Source: an uncultured Aliarcobacter sp.
Lineage (GTDB): Bacteria > Campylobacterota > Campylobacteria > Campylobacterales > Arcobacteraceae
Reading direction: 5' to 3'
Length of the DNA: 64,000 bases
Assembly (NCBI GenBank): GCA_963664305.2
Contig: CAXXLV010000002.1
Coordinates: forward strand, 1,504,001 to 1,568,000
In this document: piece after piece, positions 34,896 through 57,486 of the stretch
Position numbering within the stretch: position 1 is the stretch's first letter
Layout of the letters: each line of letters opens with the position of its first letter
Program-made: the position numbers and the translations under genes
The notes under the pieces: model-generated
What the model saw: only the letters and a program-made list of their open reading frames with translations
Databases searched by the model: none
What the model was told of the DNA's origin: nothing

Positions 34896-34959
34896 GAAAA
34901 ATTGTACCATCTCTTAGCAAAATTTTTATACAATGTCACAAAAAATTATTGGGGTCGTT

Positions 34960-36737: not shown

Positions 36738-37112
36738 TTAATTTTTCTCTTCTTCTAAAAGTTGTTTATACTCTTCGTCAGTAAAAATTCTTGATTTTGT
36801 TATAAATTGATAACCTAAATCTATTTCAAGGGAAAATGAGTTTCCAAAGGCAGCTTTTTCTTCTCTTACATCTATTGTTATAAAAGAGTGTTTAAAATAT
36901 TCAAATTGTTGTGGATCAATAAAAAATTCACATCCACAAATTTCTCCCATTTTTACATTACGGCTAGGGACATAAAAATCACCTTTTTCATAACACATAG
37001 GAGCCGTACCATCACAACAACCACCACTTTGATTAAAAACTAATTCACCATGAAGTTCTTTTAGTTTTTCTATCACTTTTGCTGCTGCATCTGTAACATC
37101 TACTCTTTTCAT
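36738..37112 (-). CDS. DUF779 family protein (aldehyde dehydrogenase-associated)
   Basis: FNQSGGCCDGTAPMC, FSLE; follows aldB. Confidence 0.9.
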   Translation of the reverse strand: MKRVDVTDAAAKVIEKLKELHGELVFNQSGGCCDGTAPMCYEKGDFYVPSRNVKMGEICGCEFFIDPQQFEYFKHSFITIDVREEKAAFGNSFSLEIDLGYQFITKSRIFTDEEYKQLLEEEKN

Positions 37113-37135
37113 TTTTTATCCTTTTGAATAAAAAA

Positions 37136-37161
37136 ACCCATAGAGGAGAACTTCTATGGGT
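37136..37161 (-). terminator. Intrinsic terminator/attenuator after aldB
   Basis: acccatagagg-loop-cttctatgggt, U-tract on minus strand. Confidence 0.7.
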
Positions 37162-37189
37162 ATTTATGGATTTATTTTCGCGTTAAATC

Positions 37190-38686
37190 CTAGAAGAAAC
37201 CTAATTTATTTTTATTGTATGAAGTTAAAATATTTTTTGTATGTCTATATGAATTTAACATCATCATATGAGTTTCTCTTCCGATTCCTGATTTTTTATA
37301 TCCTCCGAATGATGCATGAGATGGATACATGTGGTAGCAGTTAACCCATACTCTTCCAGCTTCTATACCTCTACTCATTCTATGTAATTGGTGAGCATCT
37401 CTTGACCATACACCTGAACCTAAACCATAGATTGTATCATTTGCAATTGCTAATGCTTCTGCTTCATCTTTGAAAGTTGTAACAGCAAGAACTGGTCCAA
37501 AAATCTCTTCTTGGAAGATTCTCATTTTGTTGTGACCTTTAAACAGTGTTGGTTGAATATAGAATCCATTTGGATTAGTTTCAGATTCAAATACATCTCC
37601 ACCAATTAACAGTTCAGCACCTTCTTCTTTACCAATATTGATGTATTCCATAATTTTTTCTTTTTGATTTAAAGAACATTGAGCACCCATCATATTTTCT
37701 GTATCTAAAGGATTTCCTAATTTAATTGCTTTAACTCTTTCAAGTACTCTTGCAATAAATGGCTCATAAATTGACTCTTGAATTAATGCTCTTGATGGAC
37801 AAGTACAAACTTCACCAGAGTTAAATGCGAATAATACTAAACCTTCGATTGCTTTATCAAAGAACTCATCATCAGCATCCATAATTGATTCAAAGAATAC
37901 ATTTGGAGATTTTCCACCTAACTCTAAAGTTGAAGGAATAATATTTTCTGTTGCATATTGCATAATTAATTGACCAGTTGTTGTTTCACCAGTAAATCCA
38001 ACTTTTTTAACTAATGGATGAGTAGATAAATATTTACCAATTTTTCCTCCAGCACCATTGATGATATTTACAACACCTTTTGGTAATACATCTTGAACTG
38101 CTTCCATTAATAATAAAATTGACATAGGTGTAGCAGATGCAGGTTTCATAACGATACAATTTCCAGCAGCAATAGCAGGAGCTAATTTCCAAGCAGCCAT
38201 TAATAATGGGAAATTCCAAGGAATAATTTGAGCAACAACACCATATGGCTCATAAATTTCTTGAGAAACTGTGTTTTCATCTAAATCTGAAACTGTTCCA
38301 GACTCAGCTCTAATTACAGATGCAAAATATCTAAAGTGGTCAACAACTAAAGGAACGTCTGCATTTAAAGTTTCTCTAATAGTTTTACCATTATCTAAAG
38401 TTTCAGCAATAGCTAATTTTTCTAAATTTGCTTCAATTGCATCAGCCATTTTATTTAATAAGTTACTTCTTTCAACAATTGATGTATGTTTAAAAGATTT
38501 GAATGCAGTATCAGCTGCAATAATTGCTGCTTCAACATCAGCTTCATTTGATCTTGGAATTCTTGTTAATAATGTTCCATCAACTGGAGAAATATTATCA
38601 AAGTACTCACCACTTTTTGGAGCAACCCATTCTCCACCTATAAAATTCTCATATTGAGCTTTGTATGTTGGTTTTGTATAAATCAT
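37190..38686 (-). CDS. aldB: NAD-dependent acetaldehyde dehydrogenase (AldB/ExaC/PedI type)
   Basis: IIPWNFP, FTGETTTG, LELGGKSP, GEVCTCPSR, EEIFGPV; SD favours ATG at 38686. Confidence 0.93.
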   Translation of the reverse strand: MIYTKPTYKAQYENFIGGEWVAPKSGEYFDNISPVDGTLLTRIPRSNEADVEAAIIAADTAFKSFKHTSIVERSNLLNKMADAIEANLEKLAIAETLDNGKTIRETLNADVPLVVDHFRYFASVIRAESGTVSDLDENTVSQEIYEPYGVVAQIIPWNFPLLMAAWKLAPAIAAGNCIVMKPASATPMSILLLMEAVQDVLPKGVVNIINGAGGKIGKYLSTHPLVKKVGFTGETTTGQLIMQYATENIIPSTLELGGKSPNVFFESIMDADDEFFDKAIEGLVLFAFNSGEVCTCPSRALIQESIYEPFIARVLERVKAIKLGNPLDTENMMGAQCSLNQKEKIMEYINIGKEEGAELLIGGDVFESETNPNGFYIQPTLFKGHNKMRIFQEEIFGPVLAVTTFKDEAEALAIANDTIYGLGSGVWSRDAHQLHRMSRGIEAGRVWVNCYHMYPSHASFGGYKKSGIGRETHMMMLNSYRHTKNILTSYNKNKLGFF

Positions 38687-38762
38687 TTTTTTCATCCTTT
38701 TAAATTTAGAAATTGAAGAAAATATCTTTTAAAAAGAGTAATTTTTTTCTTCCATTGATGAA

Positions 38763-38907: not shown

Positions 38908-40815
38908 ATGAAAACTTTTACATATACAATAAATAATAAACCTTTAGAAAAGATAATTGATTTTTCAATGTTTGAAAACGAAAAAAATATTTTAATTCAA
39001 ATTTTTTGTGGTGAAACAAAAGAAAAATTAGAAAACATATTAGATGTTATTACAAAAAGATTAGCTCATGCTGTTTGTATAGGTTCTTCTACAGATGGAG
39101 AAATAAGTAATGATACTATTACAACAAATCAAACTATCATATCTATTTCTACTTTTGAAACAACAACAATTAAATATGCATATGTTGAAGAAGAAGACTC
39201 TTTTTCAAATGGTGTGGAACTTGCTACAAAACTTTGTACAGATACAACAAAAGCTATTATTGCTTTTAGTGATGGAGCTACTACAAATGGAGAAGAATTT
39301 TTAAATGGTATCAATTTTGTAAATAACAAAGTAATTGTAAGTGGTGGTATGGCTGCTGATAATGCAAACTTTACTCAGACATTTATCTCTTGTCAAAATA
39401 AAATATTAACAAAAGGTGCTGTTGGTATTTCTTTAAATTCTGAAGATTTAAAAGTATGTAATGCTTTTAATTTTAATTGGTCTCCAATAGGAATAGAGCA
39501 TGTTATTGAAGAAGTTGTTGGAAATAGAGTTTACAAAATCTCTGGCCTTACACCTTTAGATTTTTATGAAAAATATTTAGGAGAATATGTTGCTCGGTCA
39601 CTTCCAGCAACAGGAATAGAATTTCCTTTAATTGTACAAAAAAATAGAATTCCAATTGCAAGAGCTGTTATAGCAAAACATGAAGATGGAAGTTTGAGTT
39701 TTGCAGGGAATCTTCATAAAGGAGATGTTGTAAGACTTGGTTTTGGAAATGTTGAATTAATTCTAAGTAATCCTCTAAAATCTTTATTAGATAAATGTGC
39801 AATGAATGAAACTCAAAGTATTTTTATCTATACATGTATGGCAAGACGTAGATATATGCCAAGTTTAATTGATATAGAAATAAAACCTTTTTCAAAAATA
39901 GCACCAACTGTTGGTTTTTTTACTTATGGAGAGTTTTTTCATAATAAAGAGAATAATGAACTATTAAATCAAACACTAACGGTATTAGCTTTAACAGAAA
40001 AAACAAATTCAAATTTGGATTTGAAAGTTGAAATAAATAGTAATCAAGACAAACTTAGTGAGCATGCAAGAAGTCTGCAAGCTTTAACAAATCTAATTCA
40101 ACAATCTTCACGTGATTATAATGAACAATCAGAAAAATTAGAAAAAGGAAATAAATATGCACAAAATCTAATAGAATCTCAAAAACAGTTTTTAAAACAC
40201 GCAGTTCATGAAACAAATACTCCCTTATCAGTTATCATGGGAAATATTGAGATGTTTGAAATGGAAAATGGAAAAAACAAATACCTTTCAAATATTGAAG
40301 TTGCAATGAAAAATATCTTTAGTATTTATGATGATTTGAGTTATTTAATCAAAAAAGACCAAGTAAATTCTGCAATTCATAAAATAAATATAGTTGATTT
40401 TGTTAGAAGTAGAATTGATTTTTTTACATCTTCTGCTTTGAAATTTAAATCAAATTTTAAATTTCAATCATTAAAAGATGAAATAATTATGAATTTCAAT
40501 GAAATAAAACTTCAAAGAATAGTTGATAATAATCTTACAAATGCAATTAAATACACTCTTCCAAATGAAACAATATTTGTAAGGCTTTCTGAATTTAACT
40601 CTGAATGTCACTTTACAATTGAGAGTCGTTCAAAACAGATTTTAGACCCACAACAAATTTTTGAAGAATATTATAGAGAAGAGCTTTCAGAAGAAGGTTT
40701 TGGACTTGGACTAAATTTAGTAAAAAGAATTTGCAGTGAAGAAAATGTAGGAATTAGATTAGAATCTGGTGAAAACTTTGCTTCATTTACATATATTTTT
40801 AAAGGAGTACTATGA
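38908..40815 (+). CDS. Cytoplasmic FIST-domain sensor histidine kinase
   Basis: FIST_N (GSSTDGEI, SGGMAAD), FIST_C (CMARR, GFFTYGEF, NQT), H-box VHETNTPL, NAIKY, GFGLGL; no TM segment seen. Confidence 0.88.
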   Translation: MKTFTYTINNKPLEKIIDFSMFENEKNILIQIFCGETKEKLENILDVITKRLAHAVCIGSSTDGEISNDTITTNQTIISISTFETTTIKYAYVEEEDSFSNGVELATKLCTDTTKAIIAFSDGATTNGEEFLNGINFVNNKVIVSGGMAADNANFTQTFISCQNKILTKGAVGISLNSEDLKVCNAFNFNWSPIGIEHVIEEVVGNRVYKISGLTPLDFYEKYLGEYVARSLPATGIEFPLIVQKNRIPIARAVIAKHEDGSLSFAGNLHKGDVVRLGFGNVELILSNPLKSLLDKCAMNETQSIFIYTCMARRRYMPSLIDIEIKPFSKIAPTVGFFTYGEFFHNKENNELLNQTLTVLALTEKTNSNLDLKVEINSNQDKLSEHARSLQALTNLIQQSSRDYNEQSEKLEKGNKYAQNLIESQKQFLKHAVHETNTPLSVIMGNIEMFEMENGKNKYLSNIEVAMKNIFSIYDDLSYLIKKDQVNSAIHKINIVDFVRSRIDFFTSSALKFKSNFKFQSLKDEIIMNFNEIKLQRIVDNNLTNAIKYTLPNETIFVRLSEFNSECHFTIESRSKQILDPQQIFEEYYREELSEEGFGLGLNLVKRICSEENVGIRLESGENFASFTYIFKGVL

Positions 40816-41471
40816 AAATTTTATTAGTAGAAGATGATGAAATGTTAAATGAAATGATTACTGAATATATAAATTCAACTGGTCATGTAATAATAAGTAC
40901 AAAAACAGGTCAAGAATCTTTAGAAATCTTAGACTCCCAAAAATTTGATTTATTGATTTTAGATATTTCACTTCCAGATATAGATGGTTTTACGATTTTA
41001 GAAAAATTGCATGAACAAAAAAGAATGGTTCCAACTATTTATATTTCTGCATTAATTGATATAGAAGATATATCTAGAGCTTTTGATTTAGGTTGTTTTG
41101 ATTATCTAAAAAAACCTTTTCATCTAAAAGAACTGACTCTAAGAATAAATAAAATTCTAAAAACAAGATTGGTTCCTCAAAGACATAAAAGACTTTCAAA
41201 ACATTATAGTTTTGATGCAGAAACTATGACTTTATATTTTAATAATGAACCACATATTCTTCCAAGACGACAACTTCAAATTATTGAACTTTTAGCACAA
41301 AATAGAAGTTTAGTTGTAAACTATGATATGTTTAGAACTTATGTTTGGAATGATGATTATATAGATAATGCAACTATTAGAGCAGAAGTAAATAGAGTAA
41401 AAACTGTATTAAGAGAAGATTTTATTAAAAATATAAGAGGAAGCGGTTATATGGTTGAAAGACCTGATTAA
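40812..41471 (+). CDS. OmpR/PhoB-family response regulator
   Basis: LLVEDD, LDISLPDIDG, KPF; winged-helix C-terminus IRGSGY. Confidence 0.92.
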   Translation: MKILLVEDDEMLNEMITEYINSTGHVIISTKTGQESLEILDSQKFDLLILDISLPDIDGFTILEKLHEQKRMVPTIYISALIDIEDISRAFDLGCFDYLKKPFHLKELTLRINKILKTRLVPQRHKRLSKHYSFDAETMTLYFNNEPHILPRRQLQIIELLAQNRSLVVNYDMFRTYVWNDDYIDNATIRAEVNRVKTVLREDFIKNIRGSGYMVERPD

Positions 41472-41487: not shown

Positions 41488-42588
41488 TTAAATAAAAGTC
41501 AAAGAATTTAATCTATTTCTATATATGATTTTATCATCTGCATAAATCATACTATCTTCAATTTTTTTATTTATTATTCCATGGTCTGGTGATTTTATAC
41601 AAACAGGGTCAGTTGCATTCATATCTTTTGTTAATGCAAATGCTTGACATCTGCATCCTCCAAAATCTTTCTCTTTTTCATCACAAGTACGACATGGTTC
41701 TTTCATCCATTTATCACCTCTAAAATAGTTAAAGGCTTCAGATTCATACCAAATATGTTCTACTGAACTCTCTTTTACATTTGGAAAAGTTAAAGGTAAA
41801 GTATTTGCTGTATTACAAGGAAGTGCTAAACCATCTGGATTAATAGTTAAAAATGTTGTTCCCCATCCATTCATACAAGCTTTTGGTCTTGTTGCAAAAT
41901 AATCAGGAACAACAAAAAATACTTTCATATCTGTTCTTTGTGTTCTATAATAATTTGTAACTTTTCTTGCTTCACTAATTTGTTCTTGAGATGGTAAAAG
42001 TGCATTTATATTTTTTAAAGCCCACCCATAATATTGGATATTTGCGATTTCTAAATAATTTGCACCTAATTTTTCAGCAAACTCTATGATATCTCCAACT
42101 TGATGAATATTTTGTCGAGTAATACAAGTATTAATAATAAGTTGAAGACCTGCATCTTTTACCTCTTTTGCAAATGCAATTTTTTCATCATAAGAGTTTT
42201 TATTGTTTGTTATTAAAGTCATAGTATTTTTATCATGTGATTGAATACCAAGTTGAACTGTTTTAAGTCCTGCTTCTTTTAATTTTGGAACAATTCCTTT
42301 TGGAGCACCAACTCCTGAAGTTATAAGATTTGTATAAAATTTTAAATCATTTGCTTTTTTTACAATCTCTAAAACATCTTTATTTAATAAAGGCTCTCCT
42401 CCACTAATTCCAAGTTGAACAGCACCTAATTCTCTTGCTTGTTCCATCACTCTAAACCAATCTTCTTTGCTCATAGCGTCTTTTGTTTTTGCAAAATCAA
42501 GTTGGTTATAACAATATGCACACTCTAAAGGACATTTATGAGTTAATTCTAAAAGAATCCATAATGGTGGTTTTATTTCATTGTTCAT
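41488..42588 (-). CDS. pqqE: PqqA peptide cyclase, radical SAM/SPASM
   Basis: PPLWILLELTHKCPLECAYC, QYYGWA, KACMNGWG, DFGGCRCQA. Confidence 0.97.
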   Translation of the reverse strand: MNNEIKPPLWILLELTHKCPLECAYCYNQLDFAKTKDAMSKEDWFRVMEQARELGAVQLGISGGEPLLNKDVLEIVKKANDLKFYTNLITSGVGAPKGIVPKLKEAGLKTVQLGIQSHDKNTMTLITNNKNSYDEKIAFAKEVKDAGLQLIINTCITRQNIHQVGDIIEFAEKLGANYLEIANIQYYGWALKNINALLPSQEQISEARKVTNYYRTQRTDMKVFFVVPDYFATRPKACMNGWGTTFLTINPDGLALPCNTANTLPLTFPNVKESSVEHIWYESEAFNYFRGDKWMKEPCRTCDEKEKDFGGCRCQAFALTKDMNATDPVCIKSPDHGIINKKIEDSMIYADDKIIYRNRLNSLTFI

Positions 42589-42838
42589 ATTTAATCCAGT
42601 TTCTATTTTTTGCTTCTGCTAAAAAAGCATTTATATCTTGTGTTAAATCTTCCATTTCAAATTTTTCACATAAAATTTTATTTATATCTTTTACGCTGTT
42701 TTTTCCGTCACAAAGATTTAGAATTTCTCCTGCACTTTGATTTAATTGAACCATACCTTCTGGGTATAAAAGTACATAACAGTTTTGTTTTTCTTCCCAT
42801 TGAAATTGAAAATTCGGATTTACACTTATATTTTTCAT
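42578..42838 (-). CDS. pqqD: PqqA-binding chaperone (RRE)
   Basis: QWEEKQNCYVLLYPEGMVQLNQSAGEILNLCDG. Confidence 0.96.
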   Translation of the reverse strand: MKNISVNPNFQFQWEEKQNCYVLLYPEGMVQLNQSAGEILNLCDGKNSVKDINKILCEKFEMEDLTQDINAFLAEAKNRNWIKYEQ

Positions 42839-42839
42839 T

Positions 42840-43550
42840 TTATCTTTCCACGTTAAAGTAAGGAGGTCTTTTTAATTCATAAGCTAAATATAAAGCATCA
42901 CAAATTGTCCATAAAATATCTAGTTTAAATTGTAAAATTGTAAAAGCTTTTTCTTGTAATTCTCTTGTATTAAACTCTTCAAGAGTAATTGCAAGTCCAT
43001 GTTGAACATCTCGTCTAGCTTCACTTAATCTTTTTTGGAAATATCTTAAACCCTTTTGTTCAATCCAAGGATAATTATCTGGCCAAGTATTTAATCTTTG
43101 TTGATGAATTTGTGGAGCAAACATCTCAGTTAAAGATGACATTGCAGCCTCTTTCCAAGGTCTTTGACGTGCAAAATTAACATAAGCATCAACTGCAAAT
43201 TTAACGCTAGGTAATAAAAATTTATGATTTATTAAATCCTCTTTTTTAAGTCCAACTGCTTCACCTAGTTCCAACCAAGCCTCTATTCCACCACCAACAC
43301 TATCATGGTCATTAATTCTATCTATCCATTTTCTTCTATCAACTAAACTATCACAGTTTGACATAATTGCAGCATCTTTAATAGGAATCATACATTGATA
43401 ATAAAATCTATTTGCAACCCAACCTTGAATCTCCTCTTTTGTACACTTACCTTCATACATTCTTATATGAAAAGGATGATGAATATGGTACATTTTTCCC
43501 ATATCTCTTAGTTTTGTTTCAAATTCTTCTTTACTAAAAACTTCTTGCAT
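42840..43550 (-). CDS. pqqC: Pyrroloquinoline-quinone synthase
   Basis: [26 protein letters not shown]. Confidence 0.97.
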
Positions 43551-43560
43551 TTTCTCTCCT

Positions 43561-44475
43561 TTAAATTTCTATACTCATACCATCATAAGATACTTCAATA
43601 CCATGGGATATAAGTTCTTTATACTCAGGGCTCTCTTCATCTAAGATAGGATTTGTATTATTTATATGAATTAATATCTTTCTTGGTTTTGTTAAGGTAT
43701 CTAATAAATCAATCAATCCACCCTTATCTCTTAGGGGTAAATGTCCCATATCAGTTCCAAGTTTTGAAGAAAATCCATTTTTTATCATCTCATCATTTGT
43801 CCAAACTGTTCCATCTACAAGTAAAATATCAGCTTGACTCATCTCTTCAATTATATGTTTTTCTAAAACACCAAGTCCTGGAAGATAAAACAATCTTTTC
43901 CCTGTTTTTTTATTTAAAACAACAACTCCAATATTATCACCAACTCTTGGTCTATCTCTATATTTTGAATATGGAGGTGCATTTGAAATTAGTGGAACGG
44001 CATAAAACTCACAATTTGGCATAACTGGTATAAAAAATGGTTGTTTATTAAAAGCTATTTCATTATAAACAACTCCTCCACCATCCCAGTGTTGAAGCAT
44101 TTTAAATAAAGGAAAAGAAGTATTTAACTCTTCATGAACTTCTTTTGTACAATAAACTTGATGAGGGCATCCTTCCCTTAACATCAAAAGTCCAGTTGTA
44201 TGGTCGATTTGAGCATCAATAAAAATAATAGCTTTTATTTTTGTTTCACGTCTTTGTTGTGGATGTAAAAATGGTGAATTATGAATTTGTTCTAAAATAT
44301 CAGGACTTGTATTAAATAAAACCCAATTCTCACCGTCTTCACTAATTGTAATAGAACTTTGTGTTCTTCTTTTTATAGATTTTTTTCCTTCTCTATAACC
44401 TTTACAATTATCGCAATTACAATTAAATTGAGGAAGTCCACCACCAGCAGATGAACCTAAAACTTCTATTCTCAT
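43561..44475 (-). CDS. pqqB: PQQ biosynthesis hydroxylase, MBL fold
   Basis: [40 protein letters not shown]. Confidence 0.97.
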
Positions 44476-44530
44476 AACCTACCTTTATTTTCATAACTAA
44501 ATCTACAAAATTATAGATTTGGATATAAAA

Positions 44531-44558
44531 ATACAAGCTAGAAATTTCTAGCTTGTAT
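44531..44558 (-). terminator. Perfect 28-bp palindrome between pqqA and pqqB (partial terminator / mRNA stabiliser)
   Basis: atacaagctagaaa|tttctagcttgtat, followed by TTTT on minus strand. Confidence 0.75.
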
Positions 44559-44603
44559 CCAAGAACAAAATTTAATTTACAAACAGGATTTTTAATTTAT
44601 TTA

Positions 44604-44678
44604 TTATTCATGACAAATATACATTGTCACTTCAAAACCAAATCTATTGTCAACAAACATAGGTTTTTCCCATTTCAT
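44604..44678 (-). CDS. pqqA: PQQ precursor peptide, 24 aa MKWEKPMFVDNRFGFEVTMYICHE (absent from ORF track)
   Basis: Manual translation; W-x-K-P and RFGFEVTMY with E-x3-Y; SD AAGGAGG upstream. Confidence 0.96.
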   Translation of the reverse strand: MKWEKPMFVDNRFGFEVTMYICHE

Positions 44679-44704
44679 TTTTATTCCCTCCTTTATAAGA
44701 TTTT

Positions 44705-46495
44705 TTATTTGTGTAATTTAAACACGTGAACAGAGCCACCTTGGTTGATGTTTTTAACTGCTTTTGCAACTTCACCACCCCATAAAGGAACAGCTCCACC
44801 CCAACCAGAAACAACAGCTACATATTGCTCACCATTTTGTTCCCAAGTAATTGGAGAACCAACGATTCCTGAACCTACGTTAAATGAGTATAAAACTTTT
44901 CCATTTTGGTCATCTAAAGCTAATAATTTACCTTCAGGAGTTCCAGTAAATACTAAACCACCAGCTGTACTTAACACTCCTCCCCATAATGGAGCTTTAT
45001 TTTTGTAAACCCATTTAATTTGTCCAGTTACAGGATCAACCGCTTTTAAAGCACCAATGTGGTCTTCAAAAATTGGTTTAATTGTAAACCCTGCTCCTAA
45101 ATATGCTGCACCTTTTTTGTACGATACTGGTTGATTCCAAATATCCATTCCCCACTCATTTGTTGGAACATAGAATAATCCAGTGTTTTGAGAATATGAA
45201 ATTGGCATCCAGTTTTTAGCACCTAAGAATGAAGGAACTGTAAATACTGATGTTCCTTTTCCACCATCAACTGCTGCACCTGGTCTATTATCTTCATTTA
45301 CAATTGGTCTTCCATTTTCATCAATTCCTTTTGCCCAAGTAATATTCTCAGCAAAAGCAACTGATCTAATATATTTACCAGTTGTTCTATCTAAAACGTA
45401 GAAGAATCCATTTTTGTCAGCTGTTGCTCCAGCTTGAACTTTTTTACCATCTTTATCTTTGTAATCAAATGGAATAAACTCTGACATACCATCAAAATCC
45501 CATCCATCATGTGGAGTTGTTTGGAAATGCCATACAATTTTTCCAGTATCTGGATTAACTGCAACTCTTGAAGCAGAATATAAGTTATCCCCTTTTCTTA
45601 AGTGTGAATTCCATGGTGCTGGATTTCCAGTTGGAACGAAAATTAAATCTGTATCAGGGTCATATGTAACACCATTCCAAGGAGCAGCTCCACCTGATTG
45701 CCACATGTCACCTTCCCAAGTAGCGTTTAATGTACCACTAATTCCATTTTCTTTACCATTTAAGTATCCCATATGACCTTCAACCATTGGTCTCATCCAT
45801 ATAAGTTCACCAGTTTTTGGATCTCTAGCTTCTACTTTACCAACAACACCAAACTCACCACCTGAAATACCTGTGATAACTTTGTCTTTTACAATTAGTG
45901 GAGCAGCAGTTATAGAATAACCATCTTTATATTCAGAAACTTTTTTCTTCCAAACAACTTTTCCAGTTTTTCTGTCAAGTGCAACTAATTTTGCATCTAA
46001 AGTTCCAAAAATAATTAGATTATCATAAATAGCAGCACCTCTATTTATAACGTCACAACATGGTAAAATTGCATCTGGTAAGTTTGCATCATATTGCCAA
46101 ATTTCTTCACCCGTTGCTATATCAATAGCAAAAACTCTTGAATAAGAAGCTGTAACATACATTACACCATCTTTAACGATTGGTTGAGATTCTTGACCTC
46201 TTTGTTTTTCACCACCAAAACTAAAGTTCCAAACAGGAACTAAATCTTTAACACTATCTTTATTAATTTGTGTTAAAGATGAAAATCTTTGTCCTTGTTG
46301 TCCTAACCCATAAGTTAAAACATCATTTGTTGTTTTTGCATCATTTGCAATTTCTTTGTAAGTAACTGCATTATATGATGGTTCTGTAACATTAGTTGTG
46401 CTATTATTAGTAGCGTTGTTTGAAGCAACACAACCACTAATTAGTGCAGATAGTGTAACGGCAACTGCACTAGTTAGCAATTTATTTTTAATCAT
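44705..46495 (-). CDS. pedH: PQQ-dependent alcohol dehydrogenase, lanthanide-type (PedH/ExaF-like), predicted lipoprotein
   Basis: GQESQP, vicinal PCCD, GGEFG, GNPAPWN, WDFDG (45488-45502), C-terminal [11 protein letters not shown]; lipobox ISG-C. Confidence 0.88.
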
Positions 46496-46544
46496 ATTCT
46501 CTCCTTATATAATTTTAATAACAGACCAAATTTGTCTTATTGAA

Positions 46545-46576
46545 AGTATACATAACAAATATAGCCTAAGTTTAGC
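46545..46576 (-). promoter_or_regulatory. pedH promoter: GCTAAA-N5-GCTATA plus -10 TATACT
   Basis: + strand TATAGC 46560, TTTAGC 46571; -10 at 46545-46550. Confidence 0.72.
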
Positions 46577-47354
46577 TATGGTTTATTTTTTTAGATTTAA
46601 ATCCAACAAACGCCATAAATAGGCTAATTACCAATGAAATTAGTAAGATAAAAAACACCTCAAAATCATATTTTCCATAAAGTGAAAAACGAATAGCCTC
46701 TACTATATAAGTAAAAGGATTAGATGATGAGATATTAAACAATAAAATAGACGAATCTTTTATCTTCCAAAGAGGATATAAAGCACTACTTAAAAAGAAC
46801 ATTGGGAAAATTACAAAGTTCATAACTGTTGCAAAATTCTCTAACTGTTTTATTACAGAAGAGATAAATAAAGCAAAAGCATTTAAGATTATTGATGAAA
46901 TTATGATTATTGGAACTGTTAGAAAAATATCTAAAACCGATAGTTCAACCCCATACCATTTAGCAATAAATAAAAAAGTTAAAGCTTGAAGAGTTGATAC
47001 GATTGCAGTTGCAAACATCTTACAAAAAAGTAGATAATTTCTATTTATATATGATGTTAAAAGTATTTTCATACTTCCCATCTCTCTATCAAAAATCATA
47101 GTTAAACTACTTTGCATTCCATTAAAAAGTAAAACCATTCCAACAAGCCCTGGAACTATATATGTTTCATAAGTAATATATGTTTCATAAGGTGGAATAA
47201 TTGCCAATCCAAGTGCTGTTTTAAATCCAACTGAAAAAATAAATAACCATAAAAGTGGTCTAACAAGTGCAGAAAAAAATCTACTTTTTTGTTTTAAAAA
47301 TCGTATTAACTCTTTATATACAATTCCATTCATGCAATAGATATATTTTTTCAT
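46572..47354 (-). CDS. pedC: ABC-2 type permease of PQQ-alcohol dehydrogenase clusters (PedC-like)
   Basis: RFFSALVRPLLWLFIF, PPYETYITYE, FNGMQSSL..DREMGSM, QLENFA.VMNFVIFP. Confidence 0.88.
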   Translation of the reverse strand: MKKYIYCMNGIVYKELIRFLKQKSRFFSALVRPLLWLFIFSVGFKTALGLAIIPPYETYITYETYIVPGLVGMVLLFNGMQSSLTMIFDREMGSMKILLTSYINRNYLLFCKMFATAIVSTLQALTFLFIAKWYGVELSVLDIFLTVPIIIISSIILNAFALFISSVIKQLENFATVMNFVIFPMFFLSSALYPLWKIKDSSILLFNISSSNPFTYIVEAIRFSLYGKYDFEVFFILLISLVISLFMAFVGFKSKKINHS

Positions 47355-47358
47355 TTTT

Positions 47359-48078
47359 TCATCCTACAATTTGCTTGAATGTATCAACCAAATTCTCTTT
47401 TTCATATTTTTTAACAATATTTTTTACAATTCCAGTTTCTATTATTTCACCATTTTTTATTATTGAAATATTGTCATTTTCTTTTACCTCATCAAAAAGA
47501 TGTGTAATCCATAAAACAGAAATTTGTTTCTCTTCTACTAATTTTCTTACATAATCCAAAATATCAAATCTACTTTTTAAATCCAAACCAACAGTTGCTT
47601 CATCTAATAATAAAAGTTTTGGTTTATTTATCAATGCTCTTAAAATCTCTACTCGTCTTCTGTGTCCACCATTTAGTTTTCGCACTTGTGTATCCATAAC
47701 ATCTAAAAGTTCAAGTTTTTCTATTTCATCTTTTATTGAAAGAAGTGTCTCTTTAAAATTTAAACCTTTTAAAGAGCCATAGTAATAAAGATTTTGTTTT
47801 ACAGTTAAATCTAAATCCAAAGTTGGTTCTTGAAAAACAATCCCAATATCTTTTAAAGCATTTGAATAATCTTTTATTGAGTAGTTATTTATGAAGATTT
47901 CTCCAATTTGAAGAGATTGAAGTCTTGTAATCAAAGAAAAAATTGTAGATTTTCCTGCACCATTAAGTCCTAATAAAACAGAAAAAGCTCCCTCTTTTAT
48001 GGAAAAAGAGACATTATTTAATACTCTCTTTTTTCCATAATAAAAATCTATATCATTTAGTTCTAAAATATTTTTCAT
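47359..48078 (-). CDS. pedB: ABC ATP-binding subunit (PedB-like)
   Basis: GLNGAGKS, VFQEPTLDLDL, LNGGHRRRVEI, LLDEATVGLD. Confidence 0.88.
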   Translation of the reverse strand: MKNILELNDIDFYYGKKRVLNNVSFSIKEGAFSVLLGLNGAGKSTIFSLITRLQSLQIGEIFINNYSIKDYSNALKDIGIVFQEPTLDLDLTVKQNLYYYGSLKGLNFKETLLSIKDEIEKLELLDVMDTQVRKLNGGHRRRVEILRALINKPKLLLLDEATVGLDLKSRFDILDYVRKLVEEKQISVLWITHLFDEVKENDNISIIKNGEIIETGIVKNIVKKYEKENLVDTFKQIVG

Positions 48079-48079
48079 T

Positions 48080-49039
48080 TTATTTATTTGGAATAACAGC
48101 TAATCCCCAAGGATATCTTCCTACAGGAATTGTTTTTTCAACTTTTAATGACTCAACATCAATTATTGAAACATCACCACTTACACCATTTGTTGTATAA
48201 AGTTTTTTCTCTCCATCTACAAAATGTAACTGCCAAACTCTTTTTCCTACAAGTAAATATTTAATTACTTTATATGTTTTTGCATCAATTACAGCAACAT
48301 GATTTGCAGGTCCTAAAGCAACAAAAGCATATTTTCCATCACTTGTAAGTTTAATTCCAACTGGTTGAATTAAATCTTTAAAAATTCCAGGAATTTTAAA
48401 TCCAATTTTTGCAACAGATGTTTTAGTTTTTGCATCAACTACCATAACTGTTCCACCAATTTCACTTGAAGCCCAAACCATACTTCCATCATGTGAAAAC
48501 TCAATATGTCTTGGTCTTTGATCAACCAATGTGTTATGAATAATCTTTTTTGTTTTTGTATCAATCCAGTGTAAAAAATTTGAAGTTTCTGTTGTATTAA
48601 TAGCAACACTTCCATCAGGACTTACAGCCATACCTTCTGGTTCAACACCTACATCGATTTGAGCTAATACAGATTTGTTTTGTGTATCAACAACAGTTAC
48701 AATTGCATCATCTTCATTTGAAATATATAACTCTTTTCCATCAGGAGTTAAAGCAAATTGTTCAGGGTCTTCACCTGAAGGTAAATCATATAAAATCTCA
48801 TTTGTTTTTGTATCCATTACTTGAACTGTATCATCATCACTTGCACAAATATAAAGTTTGCTATAGTCATTACTTAATAAAATTCCTCTTGGTCTTTGAC
48901 CTACTTTTACAGTTTTTACAACTTTATTTGTATCTGAATCTATTATGCTTAAAGTATTATCTTTTTCATTTGAAACATAAACTGTATCAGCCATAAGCAT
49001 ACTTGTTAAAATTGATATTGATAAAAAAGTCTTTTTCAT
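48080..49039 (-). CDS. Periplasmic YVTN beta-propeller, PQQ-catabolism associated (PedA2-like)
   Basis: YVSNEKDN, GQRPRG, SGEDPE, GVEPEG, GRYPWG; signal peptide; SD favours ATG at 49039. Confidence 0.88.
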   Translation of the reverse strand: MKKTFLSISILTSMLMADTVYVSNEKDNTLSIIDSDTNKVVKTVKVGQRPRGILLSNDYSKLYICASDDDTVQVMDTKTNEILYDLPSGEDPEQFALTPDGKELYISNEDDAIVTVVDTQNKSVLAQIDVGVEPEGMAVSPDGSVAINTTETSNFLHWIDTKTKKIIHNTLVDQRPRHIEFSHDGSMVWASSEIGGTVMVVDAKTKTSVAKIGFKIPGIFKDLIQPVGIKLTSDGKYAFVALGPANHVAVIDAKTYKVIKYLLVGKRVWQLHFVDGEKKLYTTNGVSGDVSIIDVESLKVEKTIPVGRYPWGLAVIPNK

Positions 49040-49068
49040 ATTTTTATTCTCCATTTATTTTATGATGA

Positions 49069-49167: not shown

Positions 49168-50319
49168 ATGAAAATAATTTTATTTTTACTACTGCTATTA
49201 AATTTTATTTATGCAGATATCTTAAATACAAAAATTTTATATTTAGAACAAAAAATTGAAAAACCACCTGTTTTATCAAATATCATAGAAGAACCTGATG
49301 ATTTAGGTTTAAAAGGTGCCCAAATTGCTGTAATTGATAGTAATAAAAGTGCTAAATTTTTAAATCAAAACTTTGAACTTGAAACAAAAATATCTTATGA
49401 TGAAAATGAGTTAATAACTGCTTTTGAAGATTTTATAAAAGCAAATAACAGTTATGTGATTTTAAATGTTGAAACAACTCTTTTTGAAAAAATCGTTAAA
49501 AATCCACTTTCAAAAAATGCTTTATTAATAAACGCAAGCAATGAAAGCACACAAATTAGAAAAAATTATTGTGTTAAAAATCTAATCCACACAAGTGCAA
49601 GTAACGCAATGCTTTATGATGGATTAGTTCAATTTTTAGTAAAAAGAAATTTTAAAAATATTCTTTTAATAAGTGGAAAAAATCCAAAAGATATAGAAAT
49701 AGCAGATGATATAAAAAGAGCTGTTAAAAAATTTGGAGCAAAAATCGTTGCTGAAAAAACTTGGGAGAACAATAGTGATATCAGAAGAAAAGCTTCTGAT
49801 GAAATTCCTGTATTTACACAAGCAAAAGATTATGATGTAGTTTTAGTAGCAGATTATTATGGAGATTTTGGAGAGTTAATCTATTTTAACTCTTGGCTTC
49901 CAAGACCAGTTGCAGGAACTCAAGGATTAACTCCTGTTTTATGGCATAAAGTTATCGAAGCTTGGGGAGCTGCTCAAATGCAAAGTAGATTTGAAAAGTT
50001 CTCTTCAAGATGGATGCAATCGCGTGATTATTCAAATTGGCTTGCAGTTAGAACAATCATCACATCTATAGCAAAAACAAATACAAATGATTTAAAAACC
50101 AATCTTGATTTTATTTACTCTGATGAGTTTGATGTTGGTGCATATATGGGAAGAAAACTCTCTTTTAGAGATTATAATGGACAAGTTAGAATTCCTATTT
50201 CACTTGTTCAACCAAGAGCTTTGATTTCAACTTCACCACAAGTTGGTTTCTTACATCCAACAACAGATTTAGATACACTTGGAATTGCACCTTTTGAAAT
50301 GGAATGTAAAAATGAATAA
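49168..50319 (+). CDS. ABC substrate-binding protein of PQQ-ADH clusters (PedA1-like)
   Basis: DYDVVLVAD..GDFG, PRPVAGTQGL, WGAAQMQSRF, SPQVGFLHP..DLDTLG. Confidence 0.85.
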   Translation: MKIILFLLLLLNFIYADILNTKILYLEQKIEKPPVLSNIIEEPDDLGLKGAQIAVIDSNKSAKFLNQNFELETKISYDENELITAFEDFIKANNSYVILNVETTLFEKIVKNPLSKNALLINASNESTQIRKNYCVKNLIHTSASNAMLYDGLVQFLVKRNFKNILLISGKNPKDIEIADDIKRAVKKFGAKIVAEKTWENNSDIRRKASDEIPVFTQAKDYDVVLVADYYGDFGELIYFNSWLPRPVAGTQGLTPVLWHKVIEAWGAAQMQSRFEKFSSRWMQSRDYSNWLAVRTIITSIAKTNTNDLKTNLDFIYSDEFDVGAYMGRKLSFRDYNGQVRIPISLVQPRALISTSPQVGFLHPTTDLDTLGIAPFEMECKNE

Positions 50320-50773
50320 AATCTTTTTATTCATTTTTCTTTTCTCTTCTTTTTTACACGCAAATTATGAAATCATAGAAAATGAAAACTTTTTTGTTGT
50401 AAAAACAGCAAACACAAATTTTCAAGAAAATCTTTTAAAACTAAAAGATGAGATAAACTTTCAAGGTTTTGTGATAGTTTATGAATTAAATCTAGCAAAA
50501 TCAACAAATGAAGTAGCAACTTTACTTGAAAAAAAATCTTATCTAAAAAATGGTACAAATCTAGGAATTTGTAAAGCAAGTTTTACGTATGAAATGGTAG
50601 AAGAAAATTTTAATAATATAAATTATTGCCCTCTTGGATTATCAATATATGAAGATTTTGATGGTTCTTTTTATATTTCATTTAAAAAATATAAACCCTT
50701 TAAAAATGAAGAAAAAATAGCAAATAAGATAAATGAAAAACTGAAAGATTTGATTTTTAAAAGTTTAGAGTAA
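50312..50773 (+). CDS. Exported DUF302-like protein
   Basis: Signal peptide from MNKIFLF; conserved Cys pair (GICKAS ... INYCPL). Confidence 0.65.
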   Translation: MNKIFLFIFLFSSFLHANYEIIENENFFVVKTANTNFQENLLKLKDEINFQGFVIVYELNLAKSTNEVATLLEKKSYLKNGTNLGICKASFTYEMVEENFNNINYCPLGLSIYEDFDGSFYISFKKYKPFKNEEKIANKINEKLKDLIFKSLE

Positions 50774-51899: not shown

Positions 51900-53099
51900 T
51901 TAAAATTCGATATTAACTGCACCAACAACAGTATGCATATCTTCTAAACTGTTTTTATCAAAATCACCAAATGCATATCTTAAACCAAGAGTTGCACTTT
52001 TATTTAAAGCATAAGATAAACCTAAATCATATTCGTTGATTTTTAAATCTTCATTTAAACTTGAAAAAGTTGTATCTTTGATTTTATGTTGAGCTATATT
52101 TGACTCTAATGTTAAAGCTTGTGTTAAATCATATTCAAAATTTAAAGCAAAGATAGTTGTATCACCATATTTTCCAACTCTATTAAATGAATCCGTCCCT
52201 AAATCAGCATTTGTAAAATATGTTACAGGTAGATTTTCCCCTGATACATAACCATCTTTTGTATGAACTGCTGCTGCACCAATTTTAAAATCATTGATTT
52301 GTTTAGCAACTTTTAAATATGCTCCAAACATTTTTTCATCAACTTGTCCTGCTGTCGAATTACTTCTATCACCAGTTCTTTTTTCAACTTGTGTTTGTAA
52401 TTCTAATCCAGCAACTTCACCCATTGCAAAGGCATTGAACATATGACTTGTTGCATCATTATAAATTGCAGAATTTGTAGCTGTTTCAGTATTGTTTTGT
52501 AAGTAAACATATCTTCCACCAACAAGTAATTTATCAAGAATAACTTGTCCACCTAAACCATATGCATCAAAATCTCCAGTTCCAGTTCCTGATGAATTAG
52601 CACCTAAGAATGTATTTTGGTCATTATTTTTACCTTCAACTGCTTTAAAATCAAATGCATATAATAAAGTATTTTCAACTGGTGTATAACCTAAAAGAGC
52701 TAAATCAATTTTATCTCCATTAGAACCATAAAAAGGTGTTCCATATGTATCATTTATTCTTCCAGCAATTAGTAATTTATCTTGATTAAATGGAACTGTT
52801 ACATAAGCTTCTTCCCACTCAAAAGTATCGTTTGAGTTATCACCCCAAGCATCATTTTGTAATTTTATAGCTGTGTGAACTTTTATACCTTCAAGTGTAG
52901 TAAAGTCTAAATTTAGATTAACTTCTGAATCAATAATTTGTTTATCTTTTTTAACTGTTGCTGTATCACCTTTTACAGAAATTCCCCTAACTTCTGCATC
53001 ACCAGAGATTTTTAAATCTGATGCTATTTCTATAGTACCTGCCATTAATGAACTTACTACAACTGATGTTGCAAAACTGATTAATCCTAACTTTTTCAA
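51900..53099 (-). CDS. Outer membrane porin-like beta-barrel
   Basis: Signal peptide, alternating beta-strand pattern, C-terminal Phe (..AVNIEF); TTG start with SD AAGGA. Confidence 0.78.
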   Translation of the reverse strand: MKKLGLISFATSVVVSSLMAGTIEIASDLKISGDAEVRGISVKGDTATVKKDKQIIDSEVNLNLDFTTLEGIKVHTAIKLQNDAWGDNSNDTFEWEEAYVTVPFNQDKLLIAGRINDTYGTPFYGSNGDKIDLALLGYTPVENTLLYAFDFKAVEGKNNDQNTFLGANSSGTGTGDFDAYGLGGQVILDKLLVGGRYVYLQNNTETATNSAIYNDATSHMFNAFAMGEVAGLELQTQVEKRTGDRSNSTAGQVDEKMFGAYLKVAKQINDFKIGAAAVHTKDGYVSGENLPVTYFTNADLGTDSFNRVGKYGDTTIFALNFEYDLTQALTLESNIAQHKIKDTTFSSLNEDLKINEYDLGLSYALNKSATLGLRYAFGDFDKNSLEDMHTVVGAVNIEF

Positions 53100-53278: not shown

Positions 53279-53683
53279 TTATTTGTATTTACCGTATTCC
53301 TTAAAAGTTTTATCTTCAAAAATAACAAAAACTGTTTTAGTTTCTTTATCATTTTCATAAGCTGGAAGAGATAATCCTATAGAATTTTTTACAGGATTTT
53401 TTAAAAAATCATTTATTGCTAGACTTGGAACATTTCCTTCAAATACAAAATCTTTATATATTGAAGTATTACAAGATTGTATCTCTTTTGGTATTCCAAC
53501 ATTTCTTTTTAATGCTTTCATATCAATCATTGATACAACATCCACACTTTCATTTACATCACTCTTGATTTTGTCTAACCAATCTTGGGGACAAGTGCTA
53601 CTAACTGGCTTAAATATTTGAATCTTTTCATCAAATGCAAATAGACTCAAAGCCAAAAACAAAATAAATACTAACTTTTTCAT
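53279..53683 (-). CDS. Exported DUF411-like protein with altered metal ligands
   Basis: SCNT..FEGNVP..GLSLP resembles DUF411 SCHT..EGHVP..GLAVP. Confidence 0.6.
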   Translation of the reverse strand: MKKLVFILFLALSLFAFDEKIQIFKPVSSTCPQDWLDKIKSDVNESVDVVSMIDMKALKRNVGIPKEIQSCNTSIYKDFVFEGNVPSLAINDFLKNPVKNSIGLSLPAYENDKETKTVFVIFEDKTFKEYGKYK

Positions 53684-54381
53684 ATTTCTCCTTCTAATAT
53701 TTTGGGATAAGTTTTAAATAATCTATTTTTTATTTCATCAATTTTTTCCATATCAAACTCTTGATTATTTTCATTTTTATATTCATAGATTATTTTGGCT
53801 GGATTTTTACCAAAAAACAAAATCCTATTTGAAAGATATATCGCTTCACTTAAATCATGAGTAACTAAAATCACACTACTTTTAAACTCTTTGCAAAGAT
53901 TTAAAAAAAATCTTTTTAGATTTAGTGCAGTTGGAAAATCCAAAGATAAAAATGGTTCATCAAGAAGTACGATTTTTGGTTCATTGATAAAAGTTCTAAT
54001 CAAAGCAATTCGTCTTGCCATTCCACCAGAGATTTCATTTGGGTATTTTTCTAAAATATCTTTTTTTAATTCAACAAAAGATAAAAACTTTTCAATCTTT
54101 TTTATATCTTTATTTTTAGAAAATAAAAGCAAATTCTCTTTTATTGTAAGCCAAGGTAATAATAGATTTTCTTGAAACATATATCCGATATTTGAAGATT
54201 TTAAGTTTACATTTCCTATAAACTCTTTATCCAAAGAAGCAACTATTTTTAATAAAGTTGTTTTACCACAACCAGATGGTCCAATAATTGATAAAAATTC
54301 TGAATCTTTTATATTGATTTTTATATCTTCTAAAATTTTGTTTTTTTCATAATATTTTGTTTTGATTTCTATATTTATCAT
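53680..54381 (-). CDS. NitT/TauT-family ABC ATP-binding protein
   Basis: GPSGCGKT, FQE..LLPW, ISGGMARR, LDEPF, VTHD. Confidence 0.9.
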   Translation of the reverse strand: MINIEIKTKYYEKNKILEDIKINIKDSEFLSIIGPSGCGKTTLLKIVASLDKEFIGNVNLKSSNIGYMFQENLLLPWLTIKENLLLFSKNKDIKKIEKFLSFVELKKDILEKYPNEISGGMARRIALIRTFINEPKIVLLDEPFLSLDFPTALNLKRFFLNLCKEFKSSVILVTHDLSEAIYLSNRILFFGKNPAKIIYEYKNENNQEFDMEKIDEIKNRLFKTYPKILEGEI

Positions 54382-56221: not shown

Positions 56222-56626
56222 ATGAAAAAAATAAGTTTAGCGGTTTTAGCAACTGCAGTTTTTGCTTTTGGACATGGAAGTGTTACACCTCAAGCAATTG
56301 ATACAAAATCATTAAAACAACTTGGAAAAGAGTGGTTAGGTGAGAATCCTTATAAAGGTGACAAAAAAGCTGAAGAGTTAGGAAAATATGCATATAGCGA
56401 AAACTGTGCTAGATGTCATGGTTTAGATGCAATTTCTGGTGGGGTTGCTCCTGATTTAAGAGCATTAGATGAAGGGATTGATGGTGATGAGTGGTTCTTA
56501 GAAAGAATCAGAGGTGGTGCTGTTAGAAATGGAAATGTTTATATGCCTCCATTTGAAGGTGTATTAACACAAGAAGCTATGTGGGCTATTAGAGCTTACT
56601 TAATTACATTACCAAAGCCTGAATAA
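56222..56626 (+). CDS. pedF: Cytochrome c550 (PedF/ExaB), electron acceptor of the PQQ-ADH
   Basis: Signal peptide, HGSVTPQAIDT, CARCH haem motif, APDLR, YMPPF. Confidence 0.93.
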   Translation: MKKISLAVLATAVFAFGHGSVTPQAIDTKSLKQLGKEWLGENPYKGDKKAEELGKYAYSENCARCHGLDAISGGVAPDLRALDEGIDGDEWFLERIRGGAVRNGNVYMPPFEGVLTQEAMWAIRAYLITLPKPE

Positions 56627-57486
56627 TGTTTTTCAAACTTTTTGTAATTCTATTCTTATCTGTTCTAGCAATTGCAAGAAGCATTGACCAAATAAAAGAG
56701 AGTGGAGAAATCATCATAGCAGTTTATGAGGATTTTCCTCCTTACTCTTTTAAAGAAAATGGTGTTGCAAAAGGTATAGATGTAGAAGTTGGAAAACTAA
56801 TCGCTAAATCTTTAAATGTAAAACCAGTATGGTATTTTACGGGTTTTGATGAAAATTTATCTGCAGATTTAAGAAATACAATTTGGAGAGGAAATCTTAT
56901 TCACAAAACAAAAGCTGATGTAATGCTTAGAATTCCTTATGATTACGATTATCTAAGAATGACTGATAAATACACTGGTGAATTAGAAAATGAAAAAGTA
57001 TCAATAAAAGCTCCATATCAAAGTGATAAATGGATTATTGCAACACATAAAAAAGTAATTCCAGAGATAAAAACACTTGGTATTTTTGCATATAACACTA
57101 TTGGTGTTGAAGTAGATACGCTTCCTGATTTTCATCTAATGAGTATTAGAACTATTGGTAAAAATGTAAAACACTACACAAAATTTGAAGATGCTTTTAA
57201 AGATTTTAAAGATGGGAAAATTGATGCAATTGCAGGTTTAAAAACTCAACTTCAATATCTTTTAAATTATAAAAAGAATAAAGATTTATACTATCTTACA
57301 GATGGTATTCCTATGCTTCCAACTAATCATTGGGATTTAGCAACTGCTGTTTCTAGTAGTTATAAAGACCTTAGTTATCATATTGATAATGTTGTAGAAG
57401 ATGCTTACAAAGATGGAAAAATTAAAAAAATCTTTGAAAAATTTAATGTGGAGTATCAAGAGCCGATTTCAAAAACACAAAAATAG
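56626..57486 (+). CDS. Quinoprotein-associated periplasmic binding protein (PedG/XoxJ/MxaJ-like)
   Basis: VYEDFPPYS, DENLSADLRN.IWRG, ADVMLRIPYD; follows the c550 gene. Confidence 0.8.
   Translation: MFFKLFVILFLSVLAIARSIDQIKESGEIIIAVYEDFPPYSFKENGVAKGIDVEVGKLIAKSLNVKPVWYFTGFDENLSADLRNTIWRGNLIHKTKADVMLRIPYDYDYLRMTDKYTGELENEKVSIKAPYQSDKWIIATHKKVIPEIKTLGIFAYNTIGVEVDTLPDFHLMSIRTIGKNVKHYTKFEDAFKDFKDGKIDAIAGLKTQLQYLLNYKKNKDLYYLTDGIPMLPTNHWDLATAVSSSYKDLSYHIDNVVEDAYKDGKIKKIFEKFNVEYQEPISKTQK

Follow-up and report, generated by a model that had tools for sequence, protein, structure and literature searches.

The alcohol dehydrogenase gene at the heart of this locus raises a question of metal: does an Aliarcobacter depend on lanthanides for its PQQ-linked alcohol oxidation, with no calcium enzyme alongside? 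The gene (here adh) lies in a 64,000-nucleotide stretch of DNA, the window, from an uncultured Aliarcobacter sp. A first-pass annotation of its letters had pointed to a lanthanide-diagnostic D-x-D motif, WDFDG, and to a missing calcium-dependent partner, and had proposed a pathway that may be obligately lanthanide-dependent, with no rare-earth switch. We regard a lanthanide-dependent type I enzyme of the PedH/ExaF kind, encoded together with its cofactor and helper genes and without a calcium partner, as the best explanation of the whole locus, with a probability of about 0.88.

The dehydrogenase groups with PedH

The gene and the residues on which its classification turns are as follows.

44705..46495 (-): PedH-type PQQ alcohol dehydrogenase, 596 aa, from TIGR03075, PDB matches and a structural model
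46055..46060 (-): vicinal Cys146-Cys147, from the sequence
45854..45856 (-): Glu214, predicted metal ligand, aligned to PedH E199
45623..45625 (-): Asn291, predicted metal ligand, aligned to PedH N281
45488..45502 (-): WDFDG motif with D333 and D335, aligned to PedH D323 and D325 (ligand table of PMC11845868)
45413..45487 (-): variant segment from M337-S338 (PedH V327-N328) through K361 (PedH R350), from the PedH alignment and covariation counts

The reading frame is intact over its 596 aa, and the minus-strand translation of 45488-45502 is indeed WDFDG, residues 332 to 336. The other annotated elements were all located as well, namely the Glu ligand (E214, within GGEFG, residues 212 to 216), the Asn ligand (N291, within GNPAPWN, residues 290 to 296) and the vicinal cysteines (C146-C147). 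Aligned to PedH, D333 falls on the catalytic-base position and D335, two residues further on, on that of the lanthanide-diagnostic Asp (PedH D325), where the D-x-S motif of the calcium enzymes PedE and ExaA has Ser or Thr. The motif is no chance word, since the whole protein scores 782.6 bits against the methanol/ethanol PQQ dehydrogenase model TIGR03075 (cut-off, 480) and WDFDG can be aligned gap-free with both PedH (WDFDGVNE) and ExaA (WDFSGNNE).

Among solved structures, the best matches are to PedH (6ZCW/6ZCV, 865/860 bits), against 680 bits for ExaA (1FLG). A predicted model of residues 41 to 596, built from 47 sequences (pLDDT 85, pTM 0.90), forms an eight-bladed propeller without a heme c domain and places 6ZCW at the top of a fold search, with a TM score of 0.96; identities in that search were 66% to PedH, 54% to ExaA, 37-39% to XoxF and 37% to 1KV9. 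The phylogeny that the first-pass annotation had asked for points in the same direction: in a FastTree tree of 110 rows, computed by this one quick method from 39 of 58 full-length family proteins and 71 database rows (ten family loci left out) and with Pseudomonas and Stutzerimonas D-x-D enzymes standing in for PedH itself, adh lies among the D-x-D enzymes and away from the 10 WDFSG rows. Identities and tree position thus both group adh with PedH.

The comparison can be made more specific. PedH of P. putida KT2440 (PP_2679, type 2b) has the same four metal ligands, vicinal cysteines and fold, whereas adh differs from it in Ser338 and Lys361, which replace Asn328 and Arg350, in a lipobox-like signal, in lacking a PedE/PedD partner and in its campylobacterotal host. 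The calcium-dependent enzymes, ExaA of P. aeruginosa and PedE, have the same fold and catalytic layout, but ExaA has Ser at the Asp335 site, GDEFG for GGEFG and loop insertions that adh lacks, and the nine true PedE-type genes of the Arcobacteraceae are about 50% identical to adh and form a separate clade. The XoxF methanol dehydrogenases (6DAM, 4MAE, 6OC5) have the D-x-D motif and ligand set in common with adh, but their identity to it is low and they belong to a different clade with a different substrate preference.

These comparisons support adh as an orthologue of PedH in which the four lanthanide ligands, E214, N291, D333 and D335, are all conserved. Purified PedH is described as working with light lanthanides but showing no activity with Ca2+ (PMC5487730), and its ligands E199, N281, D323 and D325 are tabulated for a Pr3+ structure (PMC11845868); from the close orthology and the ligand alignment, we infer that adh would likewise be lanthanide-dependent.

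The predicted signal peptide (46430-46495, -) ends in a lipobox-like ISG-C22, by regular expression, and adh may be a lipoprotein anchored at this cysteine. The same expression finds the motif in 27 of 49 family PedH-type proteins and misses it in 22; the lipobox seems to have been gained and lost.

adh lies in a ped cluster that includes the PQQ biosynthesis genes

The dehydrogenase gene is part of a complete cluster spanning 36738 to 59150, whose other members are listed here.

36738..38695 (-): ExaC-like aldehyde dehydrogenase and DUF779 protein (NF050026, 834 bits against a cut-off of 900; PF05610)
38908..41471 (+): FIST-domain histidine kinase (PF08495, PF10442, PF00512, PF02518) and OmpR-type response regulator (PF00072, PF00486)
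41488..44475 (-): pqqB, pqqC, pqqD and pqqE (TIGR02108, TIGR02111 and TIGR02109 over cut-off; PF05402)
44604..44678 (-): pqqA precursor peptide, 24 aa (PF08042)
46572-47354 (-): pedC permease
47359-48078 (-): pedB ATPase
48080-49054 (-): pedA2 beta-propeller
49168..50319 (+): pedA1-like substrate-binding protein (TIGR03863, 412.9 bits against a cut-off of 413.6)
50312..50773 (+): conserved 153-aa protein of no family, kept in 4/5 calcium-only loci
51900..53099 (-): probable outer-membrane porin, from its signal, C-terminal Phe and position; no family match
53279..53683 (-): 134-aa DUF411-like protein (PF04214 just under cut-off; atlas score of 0.91 to DUF411 clusters)
53680-54381 (-): ATPase of a second ABC system
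54383-55117 (-): permease of the second ABC system
55118-56074 (-): predicted PqqT-like PQQ-binding protein (PDB 9B1U, E 6e-44)
56222..56626 (+): pedF cytochrome c550 (TIGR04494, 192.8 bits against a cut-off of 122)
56626..57486 (+): pedG/XoxJ-like periplasmic protein, named by position and a weak TIGR03871 match (PF00497; gene order as in Table 1 of PMC12997753)
57496..59150 (+): SoxYZ-like carrier and SoxH-like metallohydrolase of quinoprotein systems (TIGR04557, 138 against 140; TIGR04558 over cut-off)

With the pedA2BC genes (46572..49054, -; TIGR03866 and TIGR03861 over cut-off, TIGR03864 just under, 285.8 against 302.25) and the pedA1-like gene, the cluster encodes a PedA1A2BC transporter; of its four models, TIGR03863, TIGR03866, TIGR03864 and TIGR03861, two are matched over and two just under the cut-offs. 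The gene set is that of the Pseudomonas ped cluster, as laid out in PMC12997753, minus pedD and pedE, and pedS2/pedR2 are missing from the cluster too. It has pedA1A2BC, pedF, pedG, the SoxYZ-like and SoxH-like genes, the aldehyde dehydrogenase and a FIST-domain sensor in common with the cluster of P. putida, but here the cluster also houses the pqq genes and the PqqT-like ABC system, and its regulatory pair consists of a fused FIST kinase and an OmpR-type partner, without any LuxR-type regulator among its genes.

Predicted metal use, substrate, localisation and helper roles can be put together as follows. The adh protein would work in the periplasm after export, perhaps held by a lipid anchor on Cys22, and would bind PQQ supplied by the adjoining pqqABCDE genes and hold a light lanthanide through E214, N291, D333 and D335. 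It would oxidise short alcohols to aldehydes, with the PedF cytochrome as electron acceptor, and the aldehyde would then be turned into the acid by the ExaC-like enzyme. Supply or insertion of metal and cofactor would fall to PedA1A2BC, PedG and the PqqT-like ABC system.

The PqqT-like protein matches 9B1U with an E value of 6e-44 over 273 residues. This structure is PqqT of Methylorubrum extorquens AM1, reported to bind PQQ and to be up-regulated by La3+ (PMC11331073). Four of its six PQQ contacts are identical here (L37, T41, G112 and K142, the key Lys), A42, a backbone contact, is Val and N143 is Thr; D141 is also kept. Compared with its M. extorquens counterpart, the protein here is encoded by the first of three genes that make up an ABC operon within the ped cluster. 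We also considered the second ABC system as a LutAEF lanthanide importer of the type described in PMC7391723, and dropped this assignment on the match of the binding protein to PqqT, with no LutA sequence in the comparison.

Several further features of the cluster and its relatives deserve mention. An exbB/exbD pair (34933-35822, +), accompanied by neither tonB nor a TonB receptor gene, adjoins the DUF779/aldehyde dehydrogenase genes, as it does in several relatives, and could energise an unlinked PQQ or lanthanide receptor. A RhuM-family gene (PF13310; 50778-51653, -) interrupts the cluster and, among 40 relative loci, is found in the same place only in G033; the site between the 153-aa gene and the porin is an insertion hot spot, which in other loci holds varied unrelated genes. 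Around adh itself, a promoter and terminator scan of 44400-46800 gave 9 promoter sites against 11.1 in shuffles, hence no excess, and the 28 bases at 44531-44558, between pqqA and pqqB, form a nearly perfect inverted repeat, which the terminator scan missed and which may end or stabilise the adh-pqqA message.

Of the 40 relative loci, 13 encode a conserved 139-aa protein without family assignment in the interval from pedA1 to pedA2 (e.g., L038:5046-5474); no homologue of it was found in this genome. Three genomes (loci L057, L063 and L069) carry a 656-aa FIST-domain chemoreceptor inserted between pedA2 and pedB; its homologue here lies outside the cluster (G000:C2:1136614-1138563), and the chemoreceptor may respond to whatever signal the FIST kinase detects. 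Two loci, L066 (G025:C79:1-15000) and L069 (G004:C22:91500-111400), have a divergent second pqq-like set beside the ped cluster, accompanied by U32-family and branched-chain aminotransferase genes. There are two pqqE matches each in G004, G019 and G141, and three pqqA copies in the two-enzyme loci L038 and L039 (G155, G156), one behind each dehydrogenase unit.

A single PQQ dehydrogenase in the genome

The first-pass annotation counted one ADH in the window and advised a search of the rest of the genome for a WDFSG paralogue. We searched all but 8,000 bases of the genome (2.78 Mb, 2 contigs, 99.96% complete). Both tblastn and phmmer, the latter over 7,155 six-frame ORFs, returned one match (for phmmer, one above threshold), which was adh; Pfam PF01011 matched adh only, a PedE-type query from a relative likewise found adh and no PedE paralogue, and none of 50 loose WD[FYWL][DSATG] matches in the genome was WDFSG. 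The count of one thus extends to the genome searched. PedD, the pentapeptide protein, was not found in the genome either; in the family it occurs in 9/184 genomes, exactly the 9 with PedE. With neither a PedE paralogue nor PedD found in the sequence searched, there is no enzyme pair to switch: in the absence of a calcium-type paralogue, PQQ-linked alcohol oxidation would need lanthanides and a PedE/PedH switch would be impossible. The lack of a partner, presented as distinctive in the annotation, turns out to be the common state, seen in 49 of the 58 family genomes with such an enzyme.

As to regulation, no PedS2/PedR2 system, with its LuxR-type regulator, was found in the cluster. A 213-aa GerE-domain ORF is encoded elsewhere in the genome; one of the four two-enzyme genomes has no GerE match. 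The same FIST kinase and regulator adjoin calcium-only (4/5 loci), two-enzyme and PedH-only clusters, and because they stand beside clusters of all enzyme types they more likely sense substrate or redox state than metal; expression under lanthanide control is possible. We also looked for a switch regulator confined to the four genomes with both enzymes. The extra ORFs that recur in their loci encode unnamed proteins, a biotin carboxylase and an AraC regulator, and are also present near single-enzyme loci; none stood out.

Dependence of the enzyme on lanthanides need not make the organism dependent on them. A cytoplasmic NAD(P)-linked dehydrogenase might oxidise alcohols in its place, and the pathway would then not be obligate for growth. 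The genome holds candidates for this role in one gene of the iron-type alcohol dehydrogenase family and three medium-chain dehydrogenase genes. The best model for the iron-type gene is PRK15138, which we take to be the NADPH aldehyde reductase YqhD, at 400 bits (cut-off, 645). Two of the medium-chain matches are acrylyl-CoA-reductase-like (TIGR02823 over cut-off), the third, a 267-aa frame (G000:C2:443127-443927; L157:1328-2128), breaks off within its second domain, perhaps through truncation or a frameshift, and no iron-type or medium-chain candidate passes the cut-off of the AdhP, AdhE or ErcA models. We regard such a bypass as a realistic possibility, though an unlikely one. Given these NAD(P)-type candidates, the word "obligate" suits just the PQQ route: the absence of an enzyme pair to switch, as proposed in the annotation, is supported by the lack of PedE and PedD in the sequence searched, whereas obligate lanthanide dependence of all alcohol use may not hold. 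A glyoxylate shunt was considered as well and set aside, the sole PF00463 match being a short stretch in a 297-aa frame that is probably not isocitrate lyase.

Distribution and origin of the enzyme

Named close homologues of adh come from Arcobacter, Aliarcobacter, Poseidonibacter, Malaciobacter and Sulfuricurvum. Of 184 Arcobacteraceae genomes, 58 encode a PQQ alcohol dehydrogenase: 49 have the PedH type only, 4 both types and 5 the calcium type only. The 53 PedH-type genomes comprise 51 in which D-x-D is seen and two with fragments typed by score (G023, G141); a WDFSG gene is present in 9 family genomes. A sample of 401 genomes from the phylum gave 5 matches, all in Arcobacteraceae, and 0/377 in other families, but two Sulfurimonadaceae records (L073, L101) do carry the cluster.

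In the 110-row tree, all 32 D-x-D rows from Campylobacterota fall into a single clade (0.999), with 8 gammaproteobacterial rows as its sister group (0.991). For the limited set of rows sampled, this suggests one old acquisition. The same patchy occurrence, with just 58 of the family genomes and none of those sampled from other families, and the nesting of the adh clade among Gammaproteobacteria might be read as marks of a recently acquired or silent island with no present function. That is very improbable in our view: all frames are intact, the third-position GC of adh (0.14) is near that of housekeeping genes (0.10-0.11) in a genome of 27% GC, and the cluster is kept, in conserved order, in 10 of 22 genera. 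As possible evidence of expression, we inspected metatranscriptome contigs from three libraries of three studies (X11, X13, X14) and a probable DNA run (X1), which lie on adh and pqq genes mostly at 90-99% identity, and set them aside because contigs of relatives do not show transcription at this locus.

Helper genes follow the lanthanide-type enzyme

Across the 184 family genomes, the searches found PedA1 in 49, PedA2 and the PqqT-like protein in 51 each, and PedG in 52. All four are confined to the 53 PedH-type genomes, where the misses are drafts, and occur in 0/5 calcium-only and 0/126 enzyme-free genomes. As a control, pqqE is found in 57/58 enzyme genomes, including all 5 calcium-only ones. 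The relatives behind these counts are not independent, and three of the five calcium-only genomes are drafts; in a tree of PqqB, PqqC and PqqE from 35 genomes with all three genes (a pqq tree, not a species tree), the five calcium-only genomes fall at five separate places among PedH genomes, with supports of 0.67-1.0. The locus is continuous across the missing helpers in four of them, and G042 retains a 34-residue remnant of the second permease. The pedBC genes do not track the lanthanide enzyme cleanly, because pedC scores over its cut-off, with pedB adjoining, in three of the five.

In P. putida, growth at low La3+ is reported to require PedA1A2BC when it depends on PedH but not when it depends on PedE (PMC6839425), and the calcium-only P. 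aeruginosa is described as lacking pedA1A2BC and pedG (PMC12997753). The link between PedA1A2BC and PedH in the family agrees with both. A corresponding link between PqqT and genomes with lanthanide-type enzymes was not found stated in the available text of the PqqT structure paper or of the 2026 ped review, in which "PqqT" has 0 occurrences.

A Lys/Ser variant of the PedH-type enzyme

The motif of adh continues with MSE, which the first-pass annotation had called atypical against the usual VNE. It does differ from VNE, but it is not a one-off: the 51 family D-x-D motifs continue with VNE in 29, ISE in 12, MAE in 9 and MSE in 1 (adh), so that 22/51 are not VNE, and the best 120 database homologues include 20 with WDFDGMSE and 19 with WDFDGMTE. 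Linked to MSE is an Arg-to-Lys change at residue 361, a change missing from the annotation. Ser338 (for Asn) and Lys361 (for Arg) are unlike every solved type I enzyme aligned; the Arg at the PedH Arg350 position presumably contacts PQQ and the catalytic Asp, although a search of the literature for its role turned up no passage on it.

MSE thus marks a subclade in which Asn328 of PedH is Ser, Ala or Thr and Arg350 is Lys. All non-Asn forms have Lys361 (20/20 family proteins, 60/60 homologues) and all Asn forms have Arg. About 20 columns separate Lys-type from Arg-type enzymes, with fixed differences of the Lys-type near the ligands at S211, P272, N274, V276, P288, M337, S338 and K361. The Lys-types form a clade (support, 0.998) in a tree with proteobacterial outgroups and a grade in a second, unfinished quick tree with PedE as sole outgroup. 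Outside the phylum, 67/68 D-x-D loci combine VNE with Arg. The exception, with ISE and Lys, is a deep-branching alphaproteobacterial PedH-like protein (L132:8001-9668; WDYDSISE) that resembles the Arcobacteraceae variant.

We considered Asn338-Arg361 as a general structural pair. The association is perfect in 58/58 family proteins and 120/120 homologues, but this amounts to about one event on the tree, L132 possibly being separate. In a distant set (123 usable of 150 representatives at 50% identity), Asn goes with Arg in 22/27, and the 96 non-Asn proteins have Lys in 56 and Arg in 39; judged by these alignments, the coupling is loose, and the Fisher value computed for this set makes it look stronger than it is.

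The adh protein is 89% identical to the Lys-type enzyme of G025 but 79-80% identical to four same-genus Arg-type enzymes, which are mutually 91-93% identical (three pairs compared), and the pqq genes of this genome group with those same-genus Arg-type genomes. On this pattern, the Lys-type allele may have been exchanged within the family.

A metal-flexible variant, one that prefers lanthanides but has enough calcium activity to make PedE dispensable, would be in keeping with the fixed differences near the ligands, with Lys at the 361 position in 28/30 representatives without the second Asp and with the Lys of the calcium-type quinohemoprotein 1KV9. Lys also occupies this position in 32/93 representatives that retain the second Asp, however, and being common in such distant D-x-D proteins it is no argument against lanthanide binding. 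Moreover, PedE is absent equally often from Arg-type genomes, G170 has a Lys-type PedH plus PedE, and Lys-type genomes keep the whole helper set. We therefore think metal flexibility improbable, and favour a lanthanide-dependent enzyme for the Lys-type as well.

Possible lanthanide biology in the Campylobacterota

The kind of enzyme to which adh belongs is well studied; its host is under-described. Bacteria with only lanthanide-type enzymes are known among methylotrophs. Full-text literature searches found no report of lanthanide enzymes in Campylobacterota, although survey tables and supplements may list Arcobacter sequences. A term search of the main text of PMC11996626, PMC11845868, PMC6028718 and bioRxiv 10.64898/2026.07.10.737718 gave no mention of Campylobacterota, nor did the text supplements of PMC11996626, and no assayed member of the adh clade was found in the literature searched. 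For ocean metagenomes, PMC11996626 gives 61% lanthanide-type against 12.5% calcium-type enzymes, and in PMC7284936 it is aldB transcripts, not PQQ enzymes, that are linked to Arcobacter.

A wider evolutionary reading, offered tentatively and at somewhat below even odds, is that the Arcobacteraceae are an overlooked lanthanide lineage in which the metal is switched by gene replacement over evolution, five lineages having gone over to the calcium enzyme and each having lost PedA1, PedA2, PedG and the PqqT-like system while still making PQQ. PqqT would then be no general scavenger; it would be dedicated to maturation of the lanthanide enzyme, delivering PQQ or keeping it metal-free until loading, and the Lys361/Ser338 subclade would have a remodelled second shell, with another lanthanide or substrate range.

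Three aspects seem worth following: the extension to a further phylum, the recurrent disappearance of four helpers together with the lanthanide enzyme, and the Lys/Ser variant. If our reading of adh is right, lanthanide biology extends to the Campylobacterota, and some 29% of Arcobacteraceae species (53/184 genomes) could oxidise alcohols only with rare earths, metals that are missing from standard media. Within the family, closely related lanthanide-only and calcium-only members also form natural pairs. Such pairs separate helpers tied to lanthanides (PedA1, PedA2, PedG and the PqqT-like ABC system) from general needs of PQQ enzymes (pqq, PedF and the SoxYZ-like and SoxH-like proteins), and through them the roles of PqqT and PedG would become directly testable.
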